A stretch of 64,000 nucleotides of DNA from Alphaproteobacteria bacterium. Lineage in GTDB: Bacteria; Pseudomonadota; Alphaproteobacteria; SP197. The notes beneath the pieces were generated by a model that did not search any database, was not told the DNA's origin, and was given only the letters and a program-made list of their open reading frames with translations. Below are positions 49,476 to 64,000 of the stretch, piece by piece; within the stretch, counting starts at the first letter, position 1, and every line of letters begins with the position of its first letter. Position numbers and translations under genes: made by a program. The DNA is taken from assembly GCA_964291415.2 (NCBI GenBank), contig OZ219920.1, positions 224,001 through 288,000 on the forward strand, given 5' to 3'.

Positions 49476-50870
49476 ATGAGACGCAACTTCCAGTATGATG
49501 TTGAAGGCCTGATGGCCAAGGACAAGGCCCACGCCATGCACCCCTGGCACGAGTTCGGCCGCGAGGAGCACATGATCCTGGCGGATTCGGAGGGAATCTA
49601 CGTCTACGACGGCGAGGGCAACCGCTACATCGACGGTATCGGCGGCATGTGGGCCGTGCAGCTCGGTTACGGCAACGAGGAGATGGCAACGGCCATCTCG
49701 GACCAGGTGCGCAGCATGGTCTACTATTCGCCCTGGTCGATGGCGACCCCGCCCCACGCGGAACTCTCCGCCAAACTGGCGACGCTGACACCGGGAGATC
49801 TCAACCGGTTCTTCTATTCAACCGGCGGTTCGACGGCGAACGACGCTGCGGTCCGCTTCGTCCACTACTACTGGAACGTCGTCGGCGAGCCGTCCCGCAA
49901 GACCATTCTCACGCGCGACGACGCCTACCATGGCAGCACGTATCTTGCCGATTCGCTGTGCGGCAAGCCCGGCAACGACACGCGCATGGAACGGGTGACG
50001 GAGTGGATCGAACATCTCTCGTCTCCCAATCCCTACCGCAAGCCCGAGGGCATGGACGACGCCGCGTTCCTCGATCACCTGATCACCGAGATGGACAACC
50101 GGATCAAGGCGATCGGCCCGGAGAACGTGGCGGCCTTCATCGCCGAGCCGGTGCTGGCGTCCGGCGGCGTCATCGTGCCGCCGAAAGGCTACCAGAAGGC
50201 GTGTCTCGAGACCTGCCGCAAGTACGGCATCCTCTACATCTCCGACGAGGTGGTGACGGGTTTCGGGCGCATGGGGCACTTCTTTTCCTCGGAGCCCGTC
50301 TTCGACATCGTGCCGGACATCATCACCGCGGCGAAGGGATTCACCTCCGGATACATCCCTGCCGGCCTGACGGCCATTTCCGAGAGAATGCACCAGGACA
50401 TCATCGAAAAGGGTGGGGATTCTCCCACGTTTTCCATGGGTTTCACCTATTCGGGACACCCGGTCGCCATGGCGGCGGCGCTCAAGAACATCGAGATCAT
50501 GGAGCGCGACGACATCATGGGTCACGCCCGCAGCACGGGCGACTACTTCCAGGAGCAGCTGCGCTCCCTGGCAGACCTTCCCATGGTGGGCGACGTCCGG
50601 GGTGTCGGACTCATGGGATGCATCGAGTGTGTCGAGAGCAAGTCGACCAGGAAGGCCTTCGAAGAGAGCCTCAATGTCGGCAAGAAGATCGACGAGAAGT
50701 GCCAGCAGTACGGGCTGATCCTGCGTCCCATGTGGCACCTGTGCGTCTTTTCGCCGCCCATCATCATCACGCGCTCCCAGGTGGACGACATGGTTGCGAT
50801 CATGGAGCGGGCCATCAGGGAAGTGGCGGACGATCTGGTGCGCGACGGTTCCTGGTCGGGCCAGGACTGA
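49476..50870 (+). CDS. Class III PLP aminotransferase (omega-amine/polyamine type)
   Basis: DGIGGMW, AYHGST, AFIAEPV, SDEVVTGFGR, AKG, GFTYSGHP. Confidence 0.9.
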   Translation: MRRNFQYDVEGLMAKDKAHAMHPWHEFGREEHMILADSEGIYVYDGEGNRYIDGIGGMWAVQLGYGNEEMATAISDQVRSMVYYSPWSMATPPHAELSAKLATLTPGDLNRFFYSTGGSTANDAAVRFVHYYWNVVGEPSRKTILTRDDAYHGSTYLADSLCGKPGNDTRMERVTEWIEHLSSPNPYRKPEGMDDAAFLDHLITEMDNRIKAIGPENVAAFIAEPVLASGGVIVPPKGYQKACLETCRKYGILYISDEVVTGFGRMGHFFSSEPVFDIVPDIITAAKGFTSGYIPAGLTAISERMHQDIIEKGGDSPTFSMGFTYSGHPVAMAAALKNIEIMERDDIMGHARSTGDYFQEQLRSLADLPMVGDVRGVGLMGCIECVESKSTRKAFEESLNVGKKIDEKCQQYGLILRPMWHLCVFSPPIIITRSQVDDMVAIMERAIREVADDLVRDGSWSGQD

Positions 50871-50891: not shown

Positions 50892-52421
50892 CTATCGGGC
50901 CGCCCTGGCCGGTGCCGGGCTGCGGTCCGGAACCTGACGGGAGACGGTGAAGGACACATCGAGCGCCTGGCCGATCGCTGCGGCCTGGCGCTCGATGCGT
51001 TCAGGCGAGGCGACGGCGGCATCCCGCGGAATCTCCAGGGCGAACCCGTCTGCGGCGGTGACCAGGGGGGTCGAATCGAGGATGGGTCCGCGTCCGGCAC
51101 TCAAGAGCAGCGCGAGACGCAGCAGCCTGCCAAGCAACACCGCCCCGTCGACCGTGTCCGGCTTCAGCAGGCGGCGGCAGGGCGCCGCCTCGTCGGCCGT
51201 TTCCGCGCCCCCGTAGCGCACGAAGATGGTGAGGGCGAGCCATGCCCTTTCCTGGTGATCGAGCACCGACCAGGGCATGTGGAGAACCCTGGAGAGGGAA
51301 CGTCCGGCACGGTACTCGGGGTGTTCTCTCCAGCCGGTGTCGGCGAGGATGCAGGCGGCGCGCACAAGGCGTGGATCGGCATGACCGTGATGCCGGATGA
51401 CCGGGGCGACCCAGCGTTCGAGAGCCGCCGAGCAGTCGGCGAACCGGCGATGCCAGAGAGCGAGTTGATGGCATGCGGCAATCAGCGGATCGCTCTTGCG
51501 GGTGGCGTCATCGAGCATGTGGAAGTGGTGCCCTTCCCGCAAGCCCTGGGCCGAGAACACGACGTTCCTCGGCGCAAGGACGTCCGTCAGGTGGTCGAGC
51601 ACCATGGCCCCCCAGGGCAGGATCGCGGCCCGCCTTCTGGAAATTCCGCGGATACGTGACGTCGTCTCGTCGCTCAGTCTCTCCAGCATGCCGGTGAAGG
51701 TCCGGGCCTCCGCCGGCGCCATGGCGTAGCCGTGCACGATGGTCAGCGGATAGTGATGCTGCGTCATGTGGAGGCGGGCGATGGCCCGCCACGAACCACC
51801 GACCGCGTGAAAATCCCGGTGCTTCCAGGTGTCGAGCCAGGCCACACCGCAGACGGCCTCGCGAATCGCCGCCGATGCGTGTGCCGGGTTCCCTCCCCAT
51901 CGTTCTCTCAGACGCAGGGGTCCGATGTCGCGTGTGGCATGCTCCCTGATGGTGCCGTCCTCGACGGCAACGAGTTCCAGGCTGCCGCCGCCCAGGTCTC
52001 CGATGACGCCGGACAATCCGGGCAGTGCCGAGATGACGCCGGCTGCTGACAGTCGTGCCTCCCCGGCGCCGGTCAGAACCGTCACGGCACGTCCTGTCCT
52101 TGTCTCGACTGAGCGGCAGAAGTCGCCGCCGTTGGCGGCCTGCCTTACGGCGGCGGTGGCATAGAGGGCGAGGTCTGAACAGGGAACGCTGTCGGCAAGG
52201 CGCACCAGGATATCGACGGCTTCGATGCCTCTGCGAAAGGCCTCTTCGCCGAACCGGCCGTGGCGCTCGACGTCCACACCGAGTCCGATGACTGCCTTGT
52301 GGTTGATGACCGGCAGAGGCGCCCGGCCGAGATCATCGAAGATGACGAGGCGAATCGAATTCGAGCCGATATCGATCACCCCCACCCTGGTGGCGGGGAG
52401 CAACTCAACGGCTTCGTTCAT
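50892..52421 (-). CDS. ppx: Exopolyphosphatase (Ppx/GppA family)
   Basis: [33 protein letters not shown]. Confidence 0.92.
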
Positions 52422-54580
52422 TCCGCCGGCGTGGGTGTCGCATTGCCCCGCTGGATCTGCCGTTGCAGTGCACTGCCCCGGCCCGACAGGCTGGGATTGG
52501 TCATGAAGAAGCGGTGGGCGGAAAAGGCGTTGTCCGCGTTGGCGAGCCTCGTGTAGGCGCCATCGCTGGTCAGCGTCCAGGACTGCTCCGTATCGCGCAG
52601 GTTGGCGACCATGATCTGGTCGAGAATCTGCCGGTGAACCGTCGGGTTGAGAATCGGAACCATGGTCTCTACCCGATAATCGAAATTGCGGGTCATCCAG
52701 TCAGCCGACGACACGAAGACAAGGGTGTCGGATGATGGCATCTCGCCGCCGTTGGCAAAGCAGAAGATGCGGCTGTGCTCGAGAAAGCGGCCGACCAGAC
52801 TCTTCACCCGGATCCTCTCCGAGAGTCCCTCGACACCGGGTCGCAGGCAGCAGATGCCGCGCACCACGAGATCGATCTCAACGCCACAGCCGGACGCCTG
52901 GTAGAGCAGGTCGATGATCTGCGAATCGACGAGGGAGTTCATCTTGGCCCAGATGGCGGCCGGCTTGCCGGCCCGGGCATTGTCGATCTCACGGCGGATC
53001 AGCTCGTGAAGGCGCTGGCGCAGGATGCCAGGCGACATGGCGACCGCCTCGAGAGTGTGGGGCCTGATGTATCCGGTCAGGAAGTTGAAGATCCGGTTGG
53101 CGTCCCGGGTGAGCGCCGGCGCGGTGGTGAAGAGGGAGAGATCGGTGTAGATCTTTGCCGTGACGGGGTGATAGTTGCCGGTTCCAAAGTGAACGTATGT
53201 CACCAGGGCGCCTTGTTCGCGGCGCACGATGAGCGAAATCTTCGTGTGGGTCTTGAAGTCCGGTATGCCGTACACGATCTGGGCGCCGGCATGTTCGAGA
53301 CCGCGGGCCCAGCGGATGTTCGCCTCCTCGTCGAACCGCGCCTTGAGCTCGACGACCGCCGTGACCGACTTGCCCGCTTCCGCTGCCTCGATAAGGGCCT
53401 TCACGATCGGCGATCCCTCGCTCGTCCGGTAGAGCGTCTGCTTGATCGCCACCACCGCGGGGTCGCGTGCCGCCTGCTGCAGGAACTGGACGACGACATC
53501 GAAACTCTCGTAGGGGTGATGGACGATGATGTCCTTGGCGCGGATGGCGTCGAAGCAGTTGCCGCCGAAGTCGCGAATGCGCTCGGGGAAGCGCGCCGAA
53601 TAGGGATCGAACAGCAGATCGGGGCGGTGGTCGACGATCAGGCGGGAGAGATCGCTCAGACCGAGCTCGCCCTCGACCACGGTGACATCGCCGGGGGAGA
53701 CATCGAGGCGGTCGGTCAGAAGATTGAGAAGTTCGCCAGGCATGGCCGCATCGACCACGAGATCAATCACGCTGCCGCGCCGCCGCCGCTTGAGAGCGCT
53801 CTCGAAGTGGCGCACCAGATCCTGTGATTCCTCGTCGATCTCGATTTCACTGTCGCGCACCACGCGGAAAAAGCCGGTTTCAAGCAACCTGAACCCCGGA
53901 AACAGGTTCTTGAGATGCATGCGCACGGCCTGTTCGAGGGGCAGGAAGCGCGATCCCTCGTCTCCAGGCAGGCGAATGAAGCGATCGGTCTGCTGCGGCA
54001 GCCTGATGATGGCATGGGCCGGTTCATCTCCGCCCTTACCGATGAGCTTGAGGGCGATGCCGAACCCGAAATTGGGAATGAAGGGGAAGGGATGGGCCGG
54101 ATCAATGGCCATTGGCGTCAGCAGGGGCAGGATTTCGCGTTCGAAATGATCGGCGAGCCAGGAGCGTTCTTCTTCGTCGAGCTGACCCTCGCTGACCACC
54201 GAGATTCCTTCCCGTGACAGCAGTCCCCGCAGGGTGCGCCAGATGACATACTGGCCGCCGATCAGCGTCTTCGAGCGATCCTTGATGGCTGCCAGCTGAC
54301 GTGCCGGAGACAGGCCATCGATGCCCGGAGTGGTGACACCGGCGTCGACCTGGGCCTTGAGGCCGGCCACCCTCACCATCTGGAATTCATCGAGATTGCT
54401 GGCGGAGATCGACAGGAATCTCAATCGTTCAAGGAGCGGGTGACGGGTGTTGCGCGCTTCCTCGAGAACCCGTTCGTTGAAGGCCAGCCAGCTCAGTTCG
54501 CGATTGATGTAGCGATCGGCCGGCGCCTCGGCGGGTGCCGGCGCGACGGACAGGACGGTATCCAGTTCCTGGCTGACCAT
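52418..54580 (-). CDS. ppk1: Polyphosphate kinase 1
   Basis: [53 protein letters not shown]. Confidence 0.96.
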
Positions 54581-54650
54581 TCTGTGCTAGCCTCGGGTCG
54601 GAAAGCGGAATGTGCGGGATTTCCCCGAACGTCGCAGGAGACGATGTGTG

Positions 54651-55160
54651 ATGACCACCACACTTTATCTCGTACGCCATGCCAAATCCAGTTGGGCAGA
54701 CATCACGCTCGACGATCACGATCGTCCCTTGCGCAACCGCGGGAGACGCCGCGCCGCCGGCCTCGCCACCTGGCTGGAAGAACGCTCGCTGGGATGCGAT
54801 CTCGTGCTGTGCTCGACCACGTTGCGCACCCGCCAGACTCTGGAGATCCTGCTTCCCGTCCTCGGCAGCGCGGAAGTCCGCTACGAAGAGGGTCTCTACC
54901 ATGGCGATGCACGCCACCTCATCTCCGTGCTGCGGCGTACGCCCTCCACCATGGATCGGGTCATGGTGGTGGGCCACGATCCTGTCCTGCAAATGACGGC
55001 GCAGTACCTGGCGGCGACGGCGACAGGCGATGCCATGGACAGGCTCGATCGCAAGTTTCCGACGTCCGCGCTGGCCATGCTGACCTTCGGTTCGGCCGGG
55101 TGGACGGCGCTGCGCCAGCACATGGGACACCTCGAATTCTTCTGCATTCCACCGGATTGA
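54651..55160 (+). CDS. sixA: SixA-like histidine phosphatase
   Basis: LVRHAKS, DHDRPL..RG, RTRQT, VGHDP. Confidence 0.85.
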   Translation: MTTTLYLVRHAKSSWADITLDDHDRPLRNRGRRRAAGLATWLEERSLGCDLVLCSTTLRTRQTLEILLPVLGSAEVRYEEGLYHGDARHLISVLRRTPSTMDRVMVVGHDPVLQMTAQYLAATATGDAMDRLDRKFPTSALAMLTFGSAGWTALRQHMGHLEFFCIPPD

Positions 55161-55167
55161 GATTGCG

Positions 55168-55692
55168 ATGAGACTGTTCGCAGGCTGGCTCTATGCTCTG
55201 GGGCTGGTGGCCACGCTCGGCGGGGTCATCGTCTGGGCATCCAATATCCCGAACATCCCCGACGAGGACGACCTCGTCTGGAAGCGCGGCTTTCTGGTCG
55301 GCATCCTCCTCGACTACGACTACGATGGCCTGTTCGTCGTCAACATGCGGTTGCGGGACGACGAGACCCTCTACACCTACCACTCCACCTACCCCAGATA
55401 TGTCGCGGTGCGCGATCGCTTTGGCATCTACCGCGATGTCGAGATCCTCGTCGATCAGACCGCCCTGGCCTCCGGCAGCGAGACCGTCAGGATGTGGGGC
55501 GTGATCGAGCACGACCCCTACGATGAAGGTATCGTTGTGCTGTTCGACGAGATCCGCAGGGAGGTGACGCAGACCGAACGCTCCTGGCAGCGCGTCGCCC
55601 TCATCGTGCTCGCCTCGGGGCTGGCCGCCATCCTCGCAGGATTCGCGATCCGCCGTGCCGTTCCCTACGTTCCCAGGGACCCCACGGCCTGA
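55168..55692 (+). CDS. Hypothetical protein with two TM helices flanking a soluble domain
   Basis: Strong GC3 codon bias, hydrophobic N- and C-terminal segments; 7 bp after sixA. Confidence 0.6.
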   Translation: MRLFAGWLYALGLVATLGGVIVWASNIPNIPDEDDLVWKRGFLVGILLDYDYDGLFVVNMRLRDDETLYTYHSTYPRYVAVRDRFGIYRDVEILVDQTALASGSETVRMWGVIEHDPYDEGIVVLFDEIRREVTQTERSWQRVALIVLASGLAAILAGFAIRRAVPYVPRDPTA

Positions 55693-56849
55693 CGGCCCGA
55701 GAGGCGCCGGTAGATCCTCGAGGCGTTGCCGCGGGCGATCATGGCGACGATGCGCTCGGCCTCCGCCAGGTTGAGCATGCCGTCGGAGATCCAGCGGTCG
55801 AGATGCTGGCTCAGCGTGCGGCGGAACTGGAGTTGTCCGAGATAGTGGAGCTCGGCCAGTCCGAAGGCGTCCGAACTGTAGAGCTGCTTGAAGAAGGGGC
55901 CCATTTCCAGGGCTTCGCCCATGATCGTGGCGGCCTGGGGCCCGGTGAAATTGAGGACCACGCCGACATCGTAATAGACGTTGCGGAAGATCTCGGCGAG
56001 CCACGCTGCTTCACGATGGAAGGGATAGTTGTGGAGAAGCGTGCAGTCGACCTCCCAGGTCTCCATGGCGCGCAGGAACTCCGTGAAGTGTGTCGGGTCA
56101 CAGGCGTGCATGGTGATGTCGGGGTCGCCGAATCCGACGTGGATCTGCAGGGGAAGGCCGTGCTGACGGGCGAGTTCGGCACCTGTCCACAGGCCTGACC
56201 GCACGACGTCAACCGCCTCGAGGCGTACCGTTCCCGTGGTCTCGATGGAGCGGAACCAGGCATCCGTCGCCGCCCCCACTTCGGCGGCCGAAGGCGGGCT
56301 CTGGTCGATGGCGAAGGTCGTGCGATAGGCGACAATGGTCTTCAGGCCGACCGCGTCGTGCGTCCGTGCCGCCAGGATGTCGGCGAACGCCTGAGGGAAG
56401 CGTGCCGCGTCAACGCCGGACCGCGCCACCTCTTCGGCCACGGCCTCGATGCGAACGACCTCGTGGGCCGGCCGTCCCGAGATCGCCGCCATCTCCGGCA
56501 CATCGGCAATCGATTCGCTCCGGTGGCCGGTGTCGACGATCAGCCTTTCCAGGCCGCATGCGTGAAGCAGGCGACGGTTGACTTCCTCCGCACCGATGTG
56601 GCGGCGACGTTCCACGTAGTCCCTGCCTTGCGTGAAGGGGTCGAGGCCGAGCAGCGGCGCGCACTGGCTGCGGACCATGAGACCGAGCGGCTTGTCGAAC
56701 TGCGAGGTTCCGTCGGGTGGCGGCCGGTAGCTTTCGCTCATGAGTGCCTCGAACGTCTGAAGATCGAGGTCTCCCGGCATCACGCCGTGGCAGTGATGAT
56801 CGATCAGGGGCAGATCACACGTGACGCCCCCCTTTGATGCAGCGGGCAT
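55665..56849 (-). CDS. Amidohydrolase_2 family protein (FluG N-terminal domain-like)
   Basis: IDHHCH metal motif, GLKTIVAYR, LQIHVGFGD, LLHNYPF, YSSDAFG..E. Confidence 0.85.
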   Translation of the reverse strand: MPAASKGGVTCDLPLIDHHCHGVMPGDLDLQTFEALMSESYRPPPDGTSQFDKPLGLMVRSQCAPLLGLDPFTQGRDYVERRRHIGAEEVNRRLLHACGLERLIVDTGHRSESIADVPEMAAISGRPAHEVVRIEAVAEEVARSGVDAARFPQAFADILAARTHDAVGLKTIVAYRTTFAIDQSPPSAAEVGAATDAWFRSIETTGTVRLEAVDVVRSGLWTGAELARQHGLPLQIHVGFGDPDITMHACDPTHFTEFLRAMETWEVDCTLLHNYPFHREAAWLAEIFRNVYYDVGVVLNFTGPQAATIMGEALEMGPFFKQLYSSDAFGLAELHYLGQLQFRRTLSQHLDRWISDGMLNLAEAERIVAMIARGNASRIYRRLSGRQAVGSLGT

Positions 56850-56853
56850 CGCC

Positions 56854-58155
56854 TCAATAGGCCCCGCGGTATCTCTGGCAGAGTTCGGCATCGCTCATCG
56901 CCGCCGCATTCGCTGCCTCGAGACGCTTGAGGGCGCCATAGGCCTCGATCATCACGGGGTCAAACCACTGACAGACGCTGTCATCGGCCAGGAAGGCGTC
57001 GAGGGCCTCGTCCAGGGATTCCGGCAGGGTGCGGATACCCTGGTCCCGGCGTTCGGCGTCGCTCAACGAGGCCGGATCCAGATTCACCATGGCAGGGGGC
57101 GCCAGGTCGGCGCGGATTCCTTCGAGCCCGGCGCGGATGATGGCGCCGATGGCAAGGTAGGGGCTCGCCGTCGCGTCGGTCGAGCGGATCTCGATGTTGA
57201 AGGCCGCAGGGTCGCCATCGGGCGCAGGGCAGATCCGGATTGCCGCCTCGCGATTCTGCACCCCGACGGCATCGAAGCCGCAGCTCCAGTGGTGTGGTCC
57301 CAGGCGCATGTAGGAGACGGGACTTGGCGCCGTGATGGCGACGAGAGCCCGCAGGTGACGGTGAACTCCGGCGACGAAGCGTCCGGCTGCGGCGCTCAGT
57401 CCGGCCGGTCCGGCGGGGTCGGCCGTCACCGGGTTGCCGGCACTGTCCCACAGGCTCAAGTGAAGATGGCAGCCGTTGCCGACGGCATCCGGCGCCGGCT
57501 TTGGCGAAAAACTCGCGGTGATCGAGCACTGGCGTGCGGTCTCGCGCACCGTCTCCCTGGTGATGACGACACGATCGGCGCCGGCCAGCCCCGTTGCCGG
57601 TCCGCAACTCACTTCGTACTGTCCGACTCCGTACTCGGGCTCGAAGGTCTCGAGGTCGACGCCGGCATCGATCAGCGCACGGGTGCAGAGATCGGCAAAG
57701 GGCGCGGCCCGGCGAATGGAATCGACGGAAAACGGCGCCGCCCACTCGAGAGCGGGATCGATGAGCAGGAACTCGTTCTCGTAGGCGATGGCGACCTCGA
57801 GTCCGGTCTGACTCTTCAGATCCTCAAGGGCATGCGCGAGGAAACTCCGGGTGCAGCACCCCCAGGGTGTGCCGTCGGCATGAAGACTGTTGCACAGGGC
57901 GACATGGAACGCCGGATGATCCTGCTTGACGACAATGCGCCGGCGCGTTGCCTCGTCCGGCACCTGACGCACCTCGTCCATGGGTCCCCAGGGATTGGGC
58001 GCGATGTCCTCGAAGGGTGTCAGGGACTGGCCGGCGAGTGCCCATCCCAGCCCGTGACGCCGTCGGCGCTCGTACTGCTCCAGGGGAACGCCCCTGGTGC
58101 GCGACAGTCCCACGAGGTCGTTCCAGACCAGCAGGACCAGTTCACCATTCGCCAT
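56854..58155 (-). CDS. Glutamine-synthetase-like gamma-glutamyl-amine ligase (GlnA3/FluG C-terminal-like)
   Basis: ENEF, EYGVGQYE, GNGCHLHLSL, SYMRL, NREAAIR, IEIRSTDATASPY; Trp (HHWSC) where GSI has the FEAP flap. Confidence 0.85.
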   Translation of the reverse strand: MANGELVLLVWNDLVGLSRTRGVPLEQYERRRRHGLGWALAGQSLTPFEDIAPNPWGPMDEVRQVPDEATRRRIVVKQDHPAFHVALCNSLHADGTPWGCCTRSFLAHALEDLKSQTGLEVAIAYENEFLLIDPALEWAAPFSVDSIRRAAPFADLCTRALIDAGVDLETFEPEYGVGQYEVSCGPATGLAGADRVVITRETVRETARQCSITASFSPKPAPDAVGNGCHLHLSLWDSAGNPVTADPAGPAGLSAAAGRFVAGVHRHLRALVAITAPSPVSYMRLGPHHWSCGFDAVGVQNREAAIRICPAPDGDPAAFNIEIRSTDATASPYLAIGAIIRAGLEGIRADLAPPAMVNLDPASLSDAERRDQGIRTLPESLDEALDAFLADDSVCQWFDPVMIEAYGALKRLEAANAAAMSDAELCQRYRGAY

Positions 58156-58248
58156 GACACCTCGCGCGTCGGTCGCGTGCCGGCGGCCACTGTTGCAACG
58201 TCGGCGACGCCGGTCAACGCCGCTTGACGACATTGGCGGGGTCTTCCA

Positions 58249-60129
58249 ATGTCGCCGGCTCCTGCAGGTGAAGCGACACCGTTGAACACGTTGACACGTG
58301 CCCGTCTTGCGTCCTGGCCGCCCCTAGCAGGCAGCCTGCTCATGCTGGTTCCCATCGCCGTCGTATCCCTGCTGGTGTGGCAGACGGGCGGTGCGGCGCT
58401 CCAGGGGACCGTGACGCACTATCTCGTGCTGACGGTCGCGGTGCTGGCCTTCAGCGCGTTCACCGGCAACTCCGGAATCCTGAGTTTCGGTCACGCGGCC
58501 TTCATGGGCCTGGCGGCGCATGTGACGGGCGTTCTCACCATACCGGTGGCACAGAAGGCCATCTTTCTGCCCGACCTGCCGTTGTGGCTTGCCGGTCTCG
58601 AACTCCATTTTCTCCTGGCCGGCGCGATCGCCGTGGTTCTCGTGACGATCGTCGGATTTCTCGTCGGCATTCCGATCTGCCGTCTCGGTGGCGCCTCGGC
58701 GGCGATCGCCACCCTGGGACTGCTCATCATCGCCTATGGCGTCCTCGTGGGCGCTCGGGACTTCACCCGCGGCAGCCAGGCGCTGATCGGCGTGCCGCGA
58801 ACCGTCGACATCCCCCTGGCCCTGCTGTTTGTCGCAATCGCCCTCACGGCGTGCCGCATCTTTCGGGATTCCCTGCCCGGCCTCGAATTGCGGGCGGCAC
58901 GCGAAGACGAGCCGGCGGCACGGGCCGTGGGTGTGGATGTCCACCGTCGCCGTCTGCTTGCCTGGACGCTCAGCGCCTGTATCGCCGCCGTTGCCGGGGT
59001 GCTGCTGGCCCATGAACTCGGGGTCTATTCGCCGAGAGAGTTCTACTTCCAGATCACCTTTGCGGTCCTCGTCATGCTGATCGTCGGCGGCATGACAAGT
59101 GTATCGGGGGCCGTGGCGGGTGCGGTTGTCGTCACCATCCTCATCGAAGTCCTGCGGTCGGTGGAAGAGTCCATCAACACGGTCTGGTTCGACGAGCCGA
59201 CGGTCTTCGGGCTGACGGACATCGGCCTGTCGCTCGCCATCCTCGGCGTGCTCTTCTGGCGGCGCAACGGACTGTTCGAGTACCGCGAGATCGAGGACTT
59301 CGTCCTCAGCCCCCGCCAGCCCCCCGCCGGACCCTTCACTGCGACGCCCGGGCGGGTGGCAGGGGAGGGAGGGCTCGAGGTCCGTAACGTCACCAGGATG
59401 TTCGGAGGCCTGCGCGCCGTGGACGACGCCAGCCTCTCGCTGAAGCCAGGCGAGATTGTCGGCCTCATCGGACCCAACGGTTCGGGGAAGACCACGCTGC
59501 TCGGCTGCATCTCCGGCGCCCTGGACTGCGACGGAGGCACCATCGTACTCGACGGCGCCGACATCACCGGCATGCCCAGTCACCTGATTGCCAGGCGTGG
59601 CGTCGGCCGCACCTTCCAGAACGTCAGGCTGTTTTCCAATCTTTCTTGCCAGGAGAACGTCAAGACCGCCCTGGCGGCGGGATCGACCGGTTCAAGACCG
59701 GCCCGCATGACGGAGCGATGCCTCGCCCTTCTCGGGGAACTCGGCATCGCAGACTATGCCTCGCGTCGCGCCGGAACCCTCGCCTACGGCCTGCAGCGGC
59801 GCCTGGAGATCGCCCGGGCGCTCGCCCTGGAACCCCGCTATCTGCTGCTCGACGAACCGGCCGCGGGCATGAATGAGAGCGAATCCGACGAACTGCTCGC
59901 CATTCTGGCCCGGTTGCGGGAAGTCAGGGGCCCGGGCCTGCTTGTCGTCGACCACGATCTCAGCCTCATCATGAGATTGTGCGACCGGGTGATCGTGCTA
60001 AACAAGGGCGAAGTCATTGCCGAAGGAACACCGGAGGAGGTCCAGTCCGACCCGGTCGTGATCGAGGCATACCTGGGTCGCCGGCGTACCGCCGAGCGGG
60101 CCACCAGTTTGTCAGCAGCAAGGGAGTAG
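58249..60129 (+). CDS. Fused LivM-like permease / LivG-like ATPase
   Basis: LSFGHAAF, AIATLG, REDE.AA..VG in TM half; GPNGSGKT, RTFQN, LDEPAAG, VIEAYLG in C-terminal half. Confidence 0.9.
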   Translation: MSPAPAGEATPLNTLTRARLASWPPLAGSLLMLVPIAVVSLLVWQTGGAALQGTVTHYLVLTVAVLAFSAFTGNSGILSFGHAAFMGLAAHVTGVLTIPVAQKAIFLPDLPLWLAGLELHFLLAGAIAVVLVTIVGFLVGIPICRLGGASAAIATLGLLIIAYGVLVGARDFTRGSQALIGVPRTVDIPLALLFVAIALTACRIFRDSLPGLELRAAREDEPAARAVGVDVHRRRLLAWTLSACIAAVAGVLLAHELGVYSPREFYFQITFAVLVMLIVGGMTSVSGAVAGAVVVTILIEVLRSVEESINTVWFDEPTVFGLTDIGLSLAILGVLFWRRNGLFEYREIEDFVLSPRQPPAGPFTATPGRVAGEGGLEVRNVTRMFGGLRAVDDASLSLKPGEIVGLIGPNGSGKTTLLGCISGALDCDGGTIVLDGADITGMPSHLIARRGVGRTFQNVRLFSNLSCQENVKTALAAGSTGSRPARMTERCLALLGELGIADYASRRAGTLAYGLQRRLEIARALALEPRYLLLDEPAAGMNESESDELLAILARLREVRGPGLLVVDHDLSLIMRLCDRVIVLNKGEVIAEGTPEEVQSDPVVIEAYLGRRRTAERATSLSAARE

Positions 60130-60135
60130 GACACC

Positions 60136-61299
60136 ATGTTTCGTACATCAACAACCCGCATCGCCGCTGTGGCTGCCGGACTCGTGGCGGCTGGCGGTGT
60201 GGCCCAGGGCGATTCCCACGGAATCACGATCGGCTATGCCGGTGGATTTACCGGCTATCTCGCGCCTTACGACCAGCCGTCCCTGAACGGGGTGCAGCTG
60301 GCGCTCGATCAGATCAATGCGGCCGGCGGCATCATGGGCATGCCGGTCGAAATCATGGTCAAGGACACGCGATCGGATACCGCTCAGGCCGCCGTCGTCG
60401 CCCAGGAGCTCATCGATGAGGGCGTGGTGGCGATGATCGTGTCCTGCGACGTCGATCCCGCCGTGGCGTCCGGCGTCATGGCCCAGGCGGCCGAGATCCC
60501 GTCAGCGAGTTCGTGTGCTTCCACACCCACCCTGCCGGCGGCGGTCGGACCCTACATGTTCTCCAACTACACGGCGGACAACCTGCAGGGTGCAGTCCTC
60601 GCAGAGTATGCCCGCGGCCAGGGCTACGAGAATGCCTATATCCTGCTGTCGCGCGACACGCCCTACACCGAGAAGCTGCCGGAGTACTTCGGCGAGGCCT
60701 TCGAGGCCATGGGCGGCACGGTGGTCGCGGTCGGCGAATACACCATGGGACAGCAGGACTTCTCGGCGGAAGTCACCAACATCGGCGGCCTCGATCCCAG
60801 TCCGGACGTCATCCAGACGTCGGCCTACGAGCCCGACTTTCCGGCCTTCATCAAGCAATTGCGAGCCGCCGGCATCGACACACCGGTGCTCGGCAGTGAC
60901 GGCATCGATTCTCCCACGACCTTCGCTCTTGGCGACGTGGCCGAGGGCGTGGTCTTCTCCAACGCCGGATTTGCGTCTCCGGGTAGTGCGCTCGAGGCCT
61001 TCGAGATGGCTTACGAGGAGAAGTACGGCATGCCGAACGACACCGTCTTCACGGCAACCGGCTATGACCTGATGATGGTCATCGCCGCGGCCATCGAGGC
61101 GGCCGGCTCCACCGACGGTCCGGCGATCCGGGATGCCTGGGACAACCTGGAGAACGTCCAGGTCGCCACGGGGTCGATCACCTACAAGGATCAGAACCGG
61201 GTGCCGGTGCGTGTTGTCGCGCTCAACCAGGTCTCGGGCGGCGAGAGGGTTCATGTCGGCGATTTCTCGCCCGATTCCTCGATGATCCCGGCTCCGTGA
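60136..61299 (+). CDS. LIV-type ABC substrate-binding protein
   Basis: Signal peptide, INAAGGIMG, DTRSD, QDFSA, DGPAIRDA. Confidence 0.88.
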   Translation: MFRTSTTRIAAVAAGLVAAGGVAQGDSHGITIGYAGGFTGYLAPYDQPSLNGVQLALDQINAAGGIMGMPVEIMVKDTRSDTAQAAVVAQELIDEGVVAMIVSCDVDPAVASGVMAQAAEIPSASSCASTPTLPAAVGPYMFSNYTADNLQGAVLAEYARGQGYENAYILLSRDTPYTEKLPEYFGEAFEAMGGTVVAVGEYTMGQQDFSAEVTNIGGLDPSPDVIQTSAYEPDFPAFIKQLRAAGIDTPVLGSDGIDSPTTFALGDVAEGVVFSNAGFASPGSALEAFEMAYEEKYGMPNDTVFTATGYDLMMVIAAAIEAAGSTDGPAIRDAWDNLENVQVATGSITYKDQNRVPVRVVALNQVSGGERVHVGDFSPDSSMIPAP

Positions 61300-62024
61300 G
61301 CAGTGGCCCCGAACACCTCCTCGACGTCGCAGGGCTTGAGGTCCGCTACGGCGCCATAGAGGCCATCAGGGGCGCAGGCCTCGAGGTCTGCAAGGGCGAA
61401 ATCGTGACTCTTCTCGGCGCCAACGGCGCCGGGAAGAGTTCCTTTCTCAACGCCGTCATGGGACTGGTGCCACTGGCCGCCGGCCGGGTCGTGCTCGATG
61501 GCGCGGACATCACCGGCGAAAAGCCGGAAACCGTCGTGCGGCGTGGCATGACCCTGTGCCCGGAAGGACGGCGCGTCTTTGCCAATCTCACCGTACGCGA
61601 GAATCTTGCCATCGGCGGCGCGACACGGCGGCGTACCGGTGATGCCGCAACGATTCTCGCCGACATGCTGGACCGTTTCCCGGTGCTCGCGGAACGCCAT
61701 GACCAGATGGCCGGCACGCTCTCGGGAGGGGAACAGCAGATGCTGGCGATCGCCCGGGCCATGATGTCCGCTCCCCGGATCGTGCTGCTCGACGAACCTT
61801 CGCTGGGTCTCGCGCCTCAAGTCGTCGACACCATCTTCGAGATGATCGTTGCCCTTCAGCATCACGGTGCCACCATTTTGCTGGTGGAACAGAATGTCGA
61901 CCTTGCCCTGGACGTAGCCGACAGGGGCTATGTCCTTGCGTCCGGCCGTGTCGTGCTCTCCGGACCGGCATCCGAACTGCAGGCTTCCGGAGAGGTCGAA
62001 CGCGCCTACATGGGGCGCGACTGA
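61296..62024 (+). CDS. livF: LivF-like ABC ATPase
   Basis: GANGAGKS, PEGRRVF, LSGGEQQMLAIARA, DEPSLGLAP, VEQN. Confidence 0.9.
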   Translation: MSSGPEHLLDVAGLEVRYGAIEAIRGAGLEVCKGEIVTLLGANGAGKSSFLNAVMGLVPLAAGRVVLDGADITGEKPETVVRRGMTLCPEGRRVFANLTVRENLAIGGATRRRTGDAATILADMLDRFPVLAERHDQMAGTLSGGEQQMLAIARAMMSAPRIVLLDEPSLGLAPQVVDTIFEMIVALQHHGATILLVEQNVDLALDVADRGYVLASGRVVLSGPASELQASGEVERAYMGRD

Positions 62025-62089
62025 TGGATGATCCGGAGCGCCGGACGATCGGGTGGCGCACCCCTTGCGCGGGTGCCGGGTAACGGCTG

Positions 62090-62974
62090 ATGGACATCGT
62101 CATCCAGCAGTTCGTCAACGCCCTTTCCCTGGGAGGCACCTATGCCCTGCTGGCTCTTGGTCTGGCGATGGTGTTCAGCGTTCTGGGCCTGATCAACTTT
62201 GCCCACGGCGATCTCATGACGCTGACGGGCTACGCCATGTTCTTTGCCATCGGCGCCGGTCTCGGCCTGCCGCTGGCGATCGTTCTCGGCATCGCCTGCG
62301 CCACCCTGGCGGCGGTGGCGATGGAACGGGTGGCCTTCCGTCCGGTGCGTGACGCCAACACGGCAACCATGCTGCTGACCAGCCTGGCGGTCAGCACCAT
62401 CCTCCACATGCTGTTCCAGAACCTGATTTCGGCCCGACCCCGGGCCATTCCGGTGCCCTCCTGGATGATCGGCGCCGTCGATGTAGGAGGCCTGGCGATT
62501 GGCGTGATCCAGCTGATGTCAATCACCGCCACAGCGCTGCTGCTCATCGCTCTCTCGGTTTTCCTGCGCCGTTCCATCCTCGGCATCGCCATGCGGGCGG
62601 CGGCTCTCGACTTTCCGGTCACCCGGCTCATGGGGATCAATGCCAACGCCGTCGTCGCCACGGCCTTCGGCCTTTCCGGGCTGCTGGCCGGAGTGGCCGG
62701 AGTCCTGTGGCTGGCGCAGCGCGGTTCGGTCGATCCGCTGATGGGTTTCCTGCCGGTGCTCAAGGCGTTCATCGCCGTGGTGCTGGGTGGTCTTGGCAGC
62801 CTTGCAGGCGCGGTGGTGGGTGGCTTCGCGCTTGCCTTCATCGAGGTGTTCCTGCGTGCCTTCCTTCCCGAAGGCTGGTTGCCGTTTCGCGAATCGATCA
62901 CACTGACCCTCGTCATCGTCCTGCTCCTGGTCAGGCCCGAGGGTCTGATCGGCCAGCGCGAGAACGTGAGATAG
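62090..62974 (+). CDS. livH: LivH-like ABC permease
   Basis: YALLALGL.MVF..LGLINFAHG, G.AMRA, KAF.AVVLGGLGS, RPEGL. Confidence 0.9.
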   Translation: MDIVIQQFVNALSLGGTYALLALGLAMVFSVLGLINFAHGDLMTLTGYAMFFAIGAGLGLPLAIVLGIACATLAAVAMERVAFRPVRDANTATMLLTSLAVSTILHMLFQNLISARPRAIPVPSWMIGAVDVGGLAIGVIQLMSITATALLLIALSVFLRRSILGIAMRAAALDFPVTRLMGINANAVVATAFGLSGLLAGVAGVLWLAQRGSVDPLMGFLPVLKAFIAVVLGGLGSLAGAVVGGFALAFIEVFLRAFLPEGWLPFRESITLTLVIVLLLVRPEGLIGQRENVR

Positions 62975-62985
62975 GAGGCGCTCGA

Positions 62986-64000
62986 TTGAGCAATTCGCTG
63001 CTCGAGAGGGACAGGCGGGTTCTCGCCGGAATCGGCAAGCTGAGGACATCGCCGCTCACCATCCGCCATGCCCGTGGCAACCGGCTGATCGAGGAGGATG
63101 GCCGCGAGGTGCTCGACATGTCCGCCACCGCCGGCGCCGCGCTTCTGGGATACGGACACCCCGCAGTCATCGAGGCGACACGCCGTGGCCTCGGCGAGTG
63201 TGCCGGTGCGTCGGCCATGTTCGGCGCATCCGAATCGGCCGTGGCCCTGGCCGAGGATCTTCTCGCCCTCGTGCCGGAGGCCGATGATCACAAGGTCTGG
63301 TTCGGTCACAGTGGATCGGATGCCAACGATACGGTCATGCGGGCCGTGACGGCAGCGACCGGACGACGCCGGTTCATGAGTTTCCATGGCGCCTATCACG
63401 GCGGCATCTCGGGTTCCATGTCCGTGTCCGGCCACCCGTCTCAGCAGCATGCGCTGCCCCGCGCCGGTCTGGTGCAGATCCCCTTTCCCAATCCCTACCG
63501 CCCTCTGGGCGGTGGCGACGCGGCGCGCCATGTTCTCGATCATGTCGATTTCCTGTTTTCCACCGCCATCCGTCCGGACGATGTCGCCGCGCTCTTCATC
63601 GAGCCGTTGCAGTCCGACGGCGGCATGCTCGTTCCGCCTCCGGGCTTCTTCTCGGCCCTCGCCGACCGGTGCCGGGCCGAGGGCATTCTCGTCGTCAGCG
63701 ACGAGGTCAAGGTGGGTCTTGGCCGGCCGGGTTGCTGGCACTGCTACCAGGCGGAAGGGTTCCGGCCCGACATCGTGACCTTCGGCAAGGGTCTGGGGAG
63801 CGGCATTCCCGTCTCGGCCATTGTCGCGCCGCGGAGCGTGATGGATGTGCAGGAAGCCTTCGCCCTCATCACCACCACCGGAAACTCCGTCTCGACGAGC
63901 GTCGCACGCGCCGTTCTCCGGCACATCCGCGACGACGGCCTCGTCGACAACGCAGCCCAACGCGGACGTCAGCTCATGGACGGCCTCGTCGCCATGCAGG
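62986..64000 (+). CDS. Class III aminotransferase (4-aminobutyrate aminotransferase-like), 3' truncated; absent from the ORF track
   Basis: TTG start after GGAGG; hand translation gives MSNSLLERD...LLGYGHP...SGSDAND...AYHG...IEPLQSDGG...SDEVKVGLGR...FGKGLGSG. Confidence 0.88.
   Translation, partial: MSNSLLERDRRVLAGIGKLRTSPLTIRHARGNRLIEEDGREVLDMSATAGAALLGYGHPAVIEATRRGLGECAGASAMFGASESAVALAEDLLALVPEADDHKVWFGHSGSDANDTVMRAVTAATGRRRFMSFHGAYHGGISGSMSVSGHPSQQHALPRAGLVQIPFPNPYRPLGGGDAARHVLDHVDFLFSTAIRPDDVAALFIEPLQSDGGMLVPPPGFFSALADRCRAEGILVVSDEVKVGLGRPGCWHCYQAEGFRPDIVTFGKGLGSGIPVSAIVAPRSVMDVQEAFALITTTGNSVSTSVARAVLRHIRDDGLVDNAAQRGRQLMDGLVAMQ

Follow-up and report, generated by a model that had tools for sequence, protein, structure and literature searches.

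The stretch of DNA described here comprises 64,000 nucleotides of contig OZ219920.1 (positions 224,001 to 288,000, forward strand) of the alphaproteobacterial assembly GCA_964291415.2, and is referred to below as the window. Near its right-hand end, and running a little beyond it, lie eight genes arranged in two divergent halves (Table 1): on the minus strand a protein related to glutamine synthetase (GS) followed by an amidohydrolase, and on the plus strand an ATP-binding cassette (ABC) importer of the LIV type, an enzyme of the class dependent on pyridoxal 5′-phosphate (PLP), and a second hydrolase, of the FGase family. It is very probable that these eight genes constitute one conserved catabolic unit, built around a GS-like ligase that is predicted to join glutamate to something other than ammonia.

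Table 1. Genes and control region of the ligase cluster, numbered from the first letter of the window.
Feature	Position	Strand	Basis or remark
Amidohydro_2 hydrolase (FluG-N-type amidohydrolase), 394 aa	55665..56849	-	Pfam PF04909 at 2.9e-10
PA5508-type GS-like ligase, 433 aa	56854..58155	-	Pfam Gln-synt_C at 4e-75 and Gln-synt_N_2
Divergent intergenic region with conserved palindromes	58156..58248	.	Comparison with close relatives
Fused LivM permease-LivG ATPase (LivMG), 626 aa	58249..60129	+	Pfam; alternative start 58342
Periplasmic binding protein (SBP), LIV/HAAT type, 387 aa	60136..61299	+	Peripla_BP_6 at 4.5e-56
LivF-type ATPase	61296..62024	+	ABC_tran
LivH-type permease	62090..62974	+	BPD_transp_2 at 1e-35
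Class-III PLP enzyme (ACL / amino-acid-amide racemase homologue), 439 aa	62986..64305 (window ends at 64000)	+	TTG start at 62986
FGase-family (PF05013) hydrolase	64302-65084 (beyond the window)	+	PF05013 at 6.6e-39

Gene layout

A first-pass annotation of the window had set a ligase and an amidohydrolase opposite an operon of five genes, and all of the genes that it listed were recovered at their positions by open reading frame (ORF) listing and Pfam scans. The 4 bp that it reported between the two minus-strand genes are exact (TGA GGCG ATG, from ligase stop to hydrolase start), and its divergent gap of about 90 bp measures 93 bp to the LivMG ATG, or 186 bp if translation begins at the alternative start, which a codon-score gene caller prefers. 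The ligase is taken to begin at M27 of a longer ORF because its homologues are 433–437 amino acids long. The operon on the plus strand has six genes rather than five, since the PLP gene continues past the window edge and the FGase gene overlaps it by 4 nt. The advice to read on past position 64000 for dehydrogenases or regulators paid off in part: the PLP gene is completed there and the FGase gene is added; farther on, past a gap, the genes are unrelated to the cluster (rhodanese, cupin, an MbnB/DUF2063 pair and a RES-domain protein).

The GS-like ligase

Among proteins of known structure the ligase is closest to PA5508 of Pseudomonas aeruginosa (4HPP; E = 1.4e-98, 334 bits), and all structures of true GS and of glutamate-methylamine ligase (GmaS) score at most 130 bits against it. 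It stays below every NCBIfam equivalog cut-off: its top match is gamma-glutamylputrescine synthetase (GGputSyn, the PuuA model NF045547), at 304 bits against a cut-off of 650, followed by GlnA (TIGR00653; 198 against 429) and type III GS (184 against 470), a ranking that is one of hidden Markov model (HMM) and PDB scores. The residues that bind metal, glutamate and ATP are all kept (E126, E128, E174, E181, H230, H232, R284, R302, R307 and E322, pairing in that order with E131, E133, E180, E187, H236, H238, R290, R308, R313 and E332 of 4HPP) and are invariant in 15 homologues; their roles were taken from Table 3 of PMC6478659, which covers 4HPP and the Bacillus subtilis GS, in combination with a HMMER alignment.

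What the ligase does not have is either of the residues that handle ammonium. A39 stands in place of the Asp (V42 in 4HPP, D53 in the type I GS structure 4LNN) and W290 in place of the flap Glu (W296 in 4HPP, E304 in 4LNN); the latter is the Trp of the HHWSC motif to which the first-pass annotation had drawn attention, and it holds its place in HMMER alignments with true GS. The equivalents of these two positions in fungal FluG are Ser481 and Trp726 (PMC6478659), so that FluG also carries Trp at the flap. Judged by its domains, its kept residues and its lost ammonium residues, the cluster protein is a predicted gamma-glutamyl-amine ligase of the GoaS/PA5508 type, which agrees with its earlier description as a non-ammonia GS homologue.

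That it might nevertheless be a true ammonia-using GS is very unlikely, because both ammonium residues are replaced and a bona fide GlnA is encoded elsewhere in the genome (C1:491800-493191), which in a genome-wide comparison scores 653 bits with TIGR00653 against 182 for the cluster ligase; true GS function was rejected on these grounds and on the missed GlnA cut-off. The whole genome holds about eleven GS-family loci, one of them above the GlnA cut-off, and four FGase-family genes; the assembly is reported to be contaminated to 8.99%. The genome also encodes another PA5508-like ligase (G000:C1:339513-342800; L088:7514-12069), which shares 41% identity with that of the cluster. Its operon, which adjoins a PhyH dioxygenase, includes genes for an NmrA-like protein and for an Amidohydro_2 protein other than that of the cluster, so that the genome contains another ligase-amidohydrolase pair.

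The amidohydrolase and the comparison with FluG

The sole PDB sequence match of the amidohydrolase is 2QPX (4e-40), and its AlphaFold 2 model (pLDDT 90) superposes on that structure with a TM score of 0.82; the next best folds are those of uronate isomerases (about 0.62), and phosphotriesterase-like lactonases and Amidohydro_2 decarboxylases come far behind. In 2QPX the residues listed for the binuclear zinc site are an HxH motif, a carbamylated Lys, Tyr, two His and Asp (PMC6478659), and every one of these residues has an identical counterpart in the window protein (H19, H21, K170, Y175, H237, H273 and D327), invariant in 25 homologues. The first-pass pairing of a Trp-flap GS-like protein with an amidohydrolase of the kind found at the N-terminus of FluG is thus matched by a 2QPX-type binuclear site.

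Fungal FluG and plant NodGS contain the same two domain types, GS-like and amidohydrolase. For the FluG N-domain the nearest template is 2QPX, and for the C-domain 4HPP and 4LNN rank highest, the latter with wider coverage and slightly higher identity; identity to the three templates is 22–25%, and the authors judged FluG to be nearer to the PA5508 type (PMC6478659). FluG and NodGS are single polypeptides, whereas the window has two genes, its ORFs being divided by a stop codon and 4 nt, and a search for fused FluG-like relatives of the ligase found none at E 1e-20 or better among proteins of 759–2165 amino acids, which is weak evidence on the matter. The label "split FluG" given to the pair is fair as an analogy.

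A racemase homologue in place of an aminotransferase

The PLP enzyme had been described as a class III aminotransferase and assigned a transamination step, and this is a claim that its matches and motifs, which are those of a racemase family, do not support. Its best PDB matches are 6GIO, an amino acid amide racemase (1.2e-150), and 2ZUK, the α-amino-ε-caprolactam (ACL) racemase (6.5e-131), with the ACL racemase structures 2ZUK, 3DXW and 5M46-5M4D all at about 1e-131. Next come alanine/serine racemase, isoleucine 2-epimerases and a broad-specificity racemase, such that the top 13 distinct PDB sequences are all racemases or epimerases; dialkylglycine decarboxylase and the γ-aminobutyrate and acetylornithine transaminases first appear at 1e-61 to 1e-50 (GabT at about 1e-50). 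A more distant copy from Dongia gives the same ranking, with racemases ahead of transaminases, and a gene on plasmid pOANT01 of Brucella anthropi, whose product is 49% identical to the window protein, matches 2ZUK at 4e-247.

The motifs point the same way. In an alignment of 34 class-III proteins from related loci, GAYHG, QSDGG, DEVK(V/T)GL and the Schiff-base Lys are present in 18 of 18 cluster-linked copies (17 loci and the window) and in the pOANT01 protein, and FGKG is likewise kept in all 18 linked copies. An unlinked class-III paralogue, with 14 copies, has LASGG and DEVVTGFGR instead, and one further protein also differs. The window itself offers an internal contrast, a second class-III PLP enzyme at 49476-50867 (+) that is 28% identical to the racemase homologue and carries the transaminase-type LASGG and DEVVTGFGR. 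Asp210 and Lys241 of ACL racemase, presumably the residues of lactam recognition, are matched in the window protein. Equivalents of Y137, D238 and K267 are present as well, the roles of Tyr137 and Asp238 in ACL racemase being described in PMC6424897.

By sequence, then, the enzyme is a homologue of the ACL and amino-acid-amide racemases and groups with racemases rather than with transaminases. Members of the family are reported to act on ACL, amino-acid amides, esters and α-amino lactams (PMC7431475), and activity on homocysteine thiolactone is reported in the title of PMC11391342. The ACL racemase of Achromobacter obae (2ZUK) and 6GIO are known as industrial catalysts; in the literature searched we found nothing on the physiological pathway or the gene context of ACL racemases.

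The importer and the FGase-family hydrolase

The transporter genes supply a full importer set of the LIV/HAAT type, with a Peripla_BP_6 protein, two BPD_transp_2 permeases and two ABC ATPases, one permease being fused to one ATPase. The fused LivMG protein consists of BPD_transp_2 (residues 56–303), ABC_tran (392–538) and BCA_ABC_TP_C (588–611), matches the LivG model NF008449 at 1.4e-69, and is annotated as the same fusion on pOANT01. LivF (NF008626 at 2e-69) and LivH (7e-47) both match their models below the cut-off. The best PDB matches of the SBP are amino-acid-binding LivJ-like proteins, at about 1e-30, and the amide sensor AmiC is matched at 4e-7.

The FGase-family protein matches 2ODF at 2e-35, and its AlphaFold 2 model (pLDDT 91) gives TM scores of 0.90 to Atu2144 (2ODF) and 0.64 to the Ralstonia FGase (2Q7S), with weaker matches to metallocarboxypeptidases, to succinylglutamate desuccinylase/aspartoacylase proteins and to phage poly-gamma-glutamate hydrolases (3A9L at E 2.6e-3; 21DC). 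Members of PF05013 cleave N-acyl-glutamate, and no NCBIfam family matches the window protein at E 1e-10 or better. A HutG function was considered and rejected: the PF05013 domain is present, but an NCBIfam equivalog match is not, and no histidine-utilization family was seen among the flanking ORFs scanned, the flanks having been scanned in part and with no search aimed at hut. In three loci (two from Actinomycetota, one from an unclassified uncultured bacterium) the place of the FGase is taken by an M20 N-acyl-amino-acid amidohydrolase, which scores 246 bits with TIGR01891 against a cut-off of 154 and resembles N2-acetyl-diaminobutanoate deacetylase. The fold matches and this exchange are together in keeping with a step in which the FGase would cleave an N-acyl, possibly an N-gamma-glutamyl, amino acid.

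Conservation of the neighborhood

A profile of 15 ligase homologues retrieved 353 related stretches from species-representative genomes. We retained the top 80, each with flanks of at most 10 kb, and counted partners by tblastn with the window proteins at a coverage of at least 50% and about 38% identity. The amidohydrolase lies near the ligase in 51 of the 80 loci (44 of them directly downstream on the same strand, the two ORFs overlapping in some relatives), the FGase in 36, the fused LivMG in 34, the SBP in 30 and the racemase homologue in 17; among the 49 loci that are flanked on each side by 8 kb or more the corresponding counts are 33, 26, 23, 22 and 15. All five partners occur together in 14 of the 80. 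The tie between the ligase-amidohydrolase pair and a LIV-type importer, which the first-pass annotation had drawn from the window, recurs in 34 of the 80 loci, spread over Alphaproteobacteria, Actinomycetota and Chloroflexota in varied gene orders, and the co-occurrence of the two divergent halves in other genomes, which had been set beforehand as a test, was seen.

Gene order is where these lineages part. In Actinomycetota and Chloroflexota the genes run SBP, LivF, LivH, LivMG and GS, all co-directional; on pOANT01 LivH, LivF, SBP and LivMG are followed, in divergent orientation, by an RpiR regulator, an isochorismatase-family protein, GS, FGase and the ACL racemase homologue, an Amidohydro_2 gene being absent there; and a Nitratireductor plasmid carries RpiR, GS, two isochorismatases, a LIV system and FGase. 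Because the order differs between phyla, the linkage looks selected rather than inherited as synteny. The idea that the two halves are chance neighbors sharing no pathway might appeal to the 23 of 80 loci that have a ligase and none of the five partners, and to five close relatives in which unrelated genes separate the halves; with co-occurrence in three phyla and in rearranged orders, co-directional operons included, we give it very little credence indeed. The inserted block, in L003-L006 and L008 (86–95% ligase identity), lies between the ligase and the transporter operon and contains an MTTB-family methyltransferase, joined in L004, L005 and L008 by a TauD dioxygenase.

The racemase homologue was also followed from its own side. 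Seven of 401 sampled alphaproteobacterial genomes, the window genome included, carry one at E 1e-80 or better, and in five of the six others (six of eight copies) a PA5508-like ligase lies 14 bp to 5 kb away; in G164 (C6:50040-55392) the racemase-ligase pair is duplicated in tandem. The congener G033 gave no match to the racemase or the ligase query at the thresholds used. Carriers of the cluster include freshwater, soil and probably sponge-associated lineages, and Dongia mobilis (CGMCC 1.7660) and Taklimakanibacter lacteus are cultured examples.

Beyond the five partners, further families were counted by a codon log-odds gene caller, ORF clustering and Pfam scans of family representatives, and these counts refer to 77 loci because the caller made no ligase call in four of 81 (L007, L010, L075 and L076). 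Of the 77, 36 have an isochorismatase-family hydrolase, 27 have an RpiR/SIS regulator directly upstream of the ligase, and nine have a FAD enzyme resembling MSOX or N-methyltryptophan oxidase; the fullest versions of the cluster (L011, L032 and D. mobilis L045) have eleven genes. The window's own clade has no RpiR, isochorismatase or oxidase in the cluster, and queries from L011 found no RpiR orthologue and no close MSOX-like oxidase in the window genome, where isochorismatase homologues are present but unlinked to the cluster. The isochorismatase slot is heterogeneous, since the gene after the amidohydrolase in L011 (L011:12457-13095) scores above the cut-off set for PncA nicotinamidase (221 against 174 bits) and the proteins of Dongia and pOANT01 are similar to RutB or to biuret hydrolase.

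The 23 partnerless loci belong largely to one subgroup with an isochorismatase after the ligase, and in eight loci of this subgroup homologues of the ATP-dependent hydantoinase or lactamase HyuA/HyuB lie beside the ligase. In a quick maximum-likelihood tree this subgroup, a 20-row clade (SH-aLRT 98), falls together with the clade of the window into a group of 34 rows (support 92) whose inner order the tree leaves open. Two Hyphomicrobiales loci (L079/L080:1537-3617) have a second, very divergent GS-like gene beside the FGase, on a long tree branch.

These hydrolases raise the possibility that hydrolysis comes first, with an imported amide, lactam or ureide being opened, the ligase capturing the toxic or volatile amine that is released, in the manner of nitrogen assimilation of the GmaS type, and the FGase freeing the amine later. 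Three different hydrolase families do occur in this type of cluster, and the sister subgroup does pair the ligase with an isochorismatase and HyuA/HyuB homologues. However, the tight adjacency of ligase and amidohydrolase in 44 of the 80 loci, together with their fusion in FluG, suggests consecutive steps on one molecule, and downstream genes of the N-methylglutamate (NMG) type are not present, so we assign a low probability to this order of events.

The regulators and oxidases bear on another alternative, namely that the substrate is an N-substituted glutamine or glutamate, an Amadori compound or something opine-like, with the ligase and the FGase both acting on its glutamate moiety. It could account for the RpiR/SIS regulators and the MSOX-family oxidases of other loci, for the uronate isomerase as the next fold after 2QPX, and for an FGase family defined by the cleavage of N-acyl-glutamate. 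Yet a PLP racemase requires a free primary α-amine, the core has no sugar kinase or isomerase genes, and the window's cluster has neither RpiR nor the oxidase; we regard this alternative as quite improbable.

A proposed pathway

From the families to which the genes belong, the catalytic residues of their products and the conservation of their linkage we infer a substrate, an order of steps and roles for the hydrolases. The reading that we favor, although we hold it at slightly less than an even chance, is that the cluster serves the catabolism of an imported chiral α-amino compound in which an amide, lactam or ester masks the carboxyl group, and that it does so through a gamma-glutamylated intermediate. 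The LIV/HAAT-type ABC system would import the compound, and the racemase homologue would, if needed, interconvert its D and L forms. The PA5508-type ligase would then use ATP to join the gamma-carboxyl of glutamate to the free amino group, after which the binuclear-metal amidohydrolase would cleave the amide or lactam, a task that in other genomes may fall to an isochorismatase-type cysteine hydrolase, alongside the amidohydrolase or replacing it. Lastly the FGase-family zinc hydrolase, or in Actinomycetota the M20 amidohydrolase, would take off the glutamyl group by hydrolyzing the resulting N-acyl amino acid to glutamate and a free amino acid. The core set would accordingly comprise the ligase, one or two amide hydrolases, an N-acyl-amino-acid hydrolase, the importer and a regulator, with the racemase or an oxidase as accessory.

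Several observations weigh against this reading. The ligase occurs with none of the five partners in more than a quarter of the loci (the 23 of 80 given above), and in G300 two racemase copies do not share a contig with any of the three ligase homologues. Since the racemase homologue is found in 17 of the 80 loci only, it may represent an accessory step and mislead as to the core substrate. The model offers no reason why an amide or lactam should be glutamylated ahead of hydrolysis. Regulators of the RpiR/SIS class often sense sugar phosphates, and these together with the uronate-isomerase-like fold of the amidohydrolase hint at sugar-like chemistry. The accessory oxidase implies secondary-amine chemistry, which has no place in the model, and the reported preference of PA5508 is for aromatic or bulky amines and not for amino-acid amides.

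A bolder form of the favored reading, which we consider doubtful, is that the cluster represents the natural pathway of the ACL-racemase family and of the bacterial FluG-type pairs. A gamma-glutamyl handle, placed at the cost of ATP on the α-amino group of an α-amino lactam or amide (lysine lactam, ornithine lactam or an amino-acid amide) would enable the amidohydrolase to open an otherwise stable amide, and the FGase or M20 enzyme would remove the handle.

Comparison with characterized systems

PA5508 (PauA7) is the closest characterized homologue of the ligase, with which it shares the PHHWS motif, the Trp flap and the absence of the ammonium-deprotonating Asp, and PA5508 is reported to be a gamma-glutamylating enzyme in vitro with a preference for bulky amines. 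PA5506-PA5509 behave in P. aeruginosa as a single unit of expression (PMC6246594), and a literature search on PA5506, PA5507, PA5509 and PA5510 yielded lists of expression or of transporters and nothing further. The two settings differ in transport, PA5508 being accompanied by the APC-family permease PA5510 and the window ligase by a LIV-type ABC system. Of the other genes in the Pseudomonas unit, we take PA5506 to be RpiR-like, PA5507 amidohydrolase-like and PA5509 FGase-like.

One could model the window on this system and propose that a bulky or aromatic monoamine is broken down or detoxified, as has been suggested for PA5508, with the hydrolases recycling glutamate and the racemase an unrelated add-on, a proposal to which the reported taste of PA5508 for bulky amines and the co-expression of its neighbors lend some weight. 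Against this, ring-cleavage or amine-oxidation genes were not found in the cluster, the linkage of racemase and GS recurs in five of six genomes, and the SBP best matches amino-acid binders, and our estimate of its probability is a small one.

The polyamine systems are the other obvious comparison. In Streptomyces coelicolor, the gamma-glutamylpolyamine synthetase operon glnA3-SCO6961-SCO6960 has the arrangement seen in the window, a GS-like ligase followed by an amidohydrolase-2 gene, and the two are co-induced there (PMC5403932); the operon differs in being linked to polyamines and in being without an FGase, a LIV-type importer or a racemase. The Puu pathway of Escherichia coli (PuuA, PuuB, PuuC, PuuD and PuuP) resembles the scheme that we propose in its logic, in that a gamma-glutamyl handle is added, the substrate is modified and the handle is removed by a hydrolase. 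It differs in that the window cluster has no PuuC or PuuD homologue, the hydrolases of this cluster type being Amidohydro_2, FGase and isochorismatase proteins, in that an oxidase or transaminase works where the window has a racemase, and in that the window's importer is of the ABC type.

The first-pass annotation had in fact proposed a Puu-like route: the cell would take up an amine or diamine and gamma-glutamylate it, the class-III enzyme would transaminate the second amino group, and the amidohydrolase would set the product free. Such a route would make sense of the gamma-glutamylputrescine synthetase model as the ligase's top NCBIfam match, of the polyamine-induced glnA3 and amidohydrolase-2 neighbors in S. 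coelicolor, and of a PLP enzyme with the class-III aminotransferase fold. But the score with that model is far under its cut-off, the PLP enzyme groups with racemases, the transporter is LIV-type rather than Pot/Spu, and the MSOX-like oxidase of nine of the 77 loci is not in the window's cluster. Moreover, neither an aldehyde dehydrogenase nor a PuuD-type hydrolase was found by Pfam in the cluster genes or in 34 recurrent neighbor families, and the Puu-like pathway as proposed could not be upheld; we now consider it unlikely. A signaling role, which the first-pass annotation had named as the other option, likewise drew no support from the analysis. In general, a simple amine or diamine appears less likely as the substrate than an α-amino carboxamide, lactam or ester.

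The divergent region and the flanking genes

Between the two halves of the cluster lie two palindromes, GTCAACGCCGCTTGAC (58213-58228) and GTTGCAAC (58192-58199), which are largely kept in seven close relatives (OWN, L002, L036, L024, L072, L009 and L010), some of them with one or two changes, while the spacer outside them is variable in the same set. Possible readings of the two are an operator or a back-to-back arrangement of -35 boxes. A consensus promoter scan found nothing in this intergenic region, a scan for promoters and terminators gave a number of sites not above that in shuffles, and no regulator gene is linked to the cluster in the window's clade.

To the left of the cluster lie ppk (PF13089/02503/17941/13090) and ppx (Ppx-GppA) at 50892-54580 (-), overlapping by 4 nt and syntenic with the cluster in 16 related loci. 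They are followed by a His_Phos_1 phosphatase gene at 54648-55157 (+) and by a gene at 55168-55689 (+) for a 174-residue protein without a Pfam match, which overlaps the 3′ end of the amidohydrolase gene by about 25 nt; these two small genes, both convergent with the amidohydrolase, are kept beside the cluster in 14 and 16 loci, respectively. On the other side, beyond the window (L001:14074-15790; C4:293074-294790), an enzyme of the MbnB/TglH/ChrH family (3e-99) precedes a DUF2063 protein, a combination characteristic of loci that modify ribosomally synthesized and post-translationally modified peptides (RiPPs), and a RES-domain ORF lies just downstream.

Significance

Pairs of a GS-like ligase and an Amidohydro_2 protein, catabolism by way of a gamma-glutamyl handle, and ACL racemases as catalysts were already known. 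Our literature search, outside which most subscription journals lay, found no description of the cluster, of a link between ACL racemases and GS-like ligases, or of the substrate. The glnA3 operons, PA5508, FluG and NodGS are examples of a widespread partnership between ligase and amidohydrolase, mostly without a known substrate, and ACL racemases are in industrial use without a known natural role. The module described here brings the ligase-amidohydrolase pairs and the ACL racemases together with an importer and with two or three hydrolase families, and it thereby supplies a testable hypothesis for all of them. If the bolder form of that hypothesis is true, it would amount to a new catabolic logic and would give a hint at the chemistry carried out by fungal FluG and plant NodGS.

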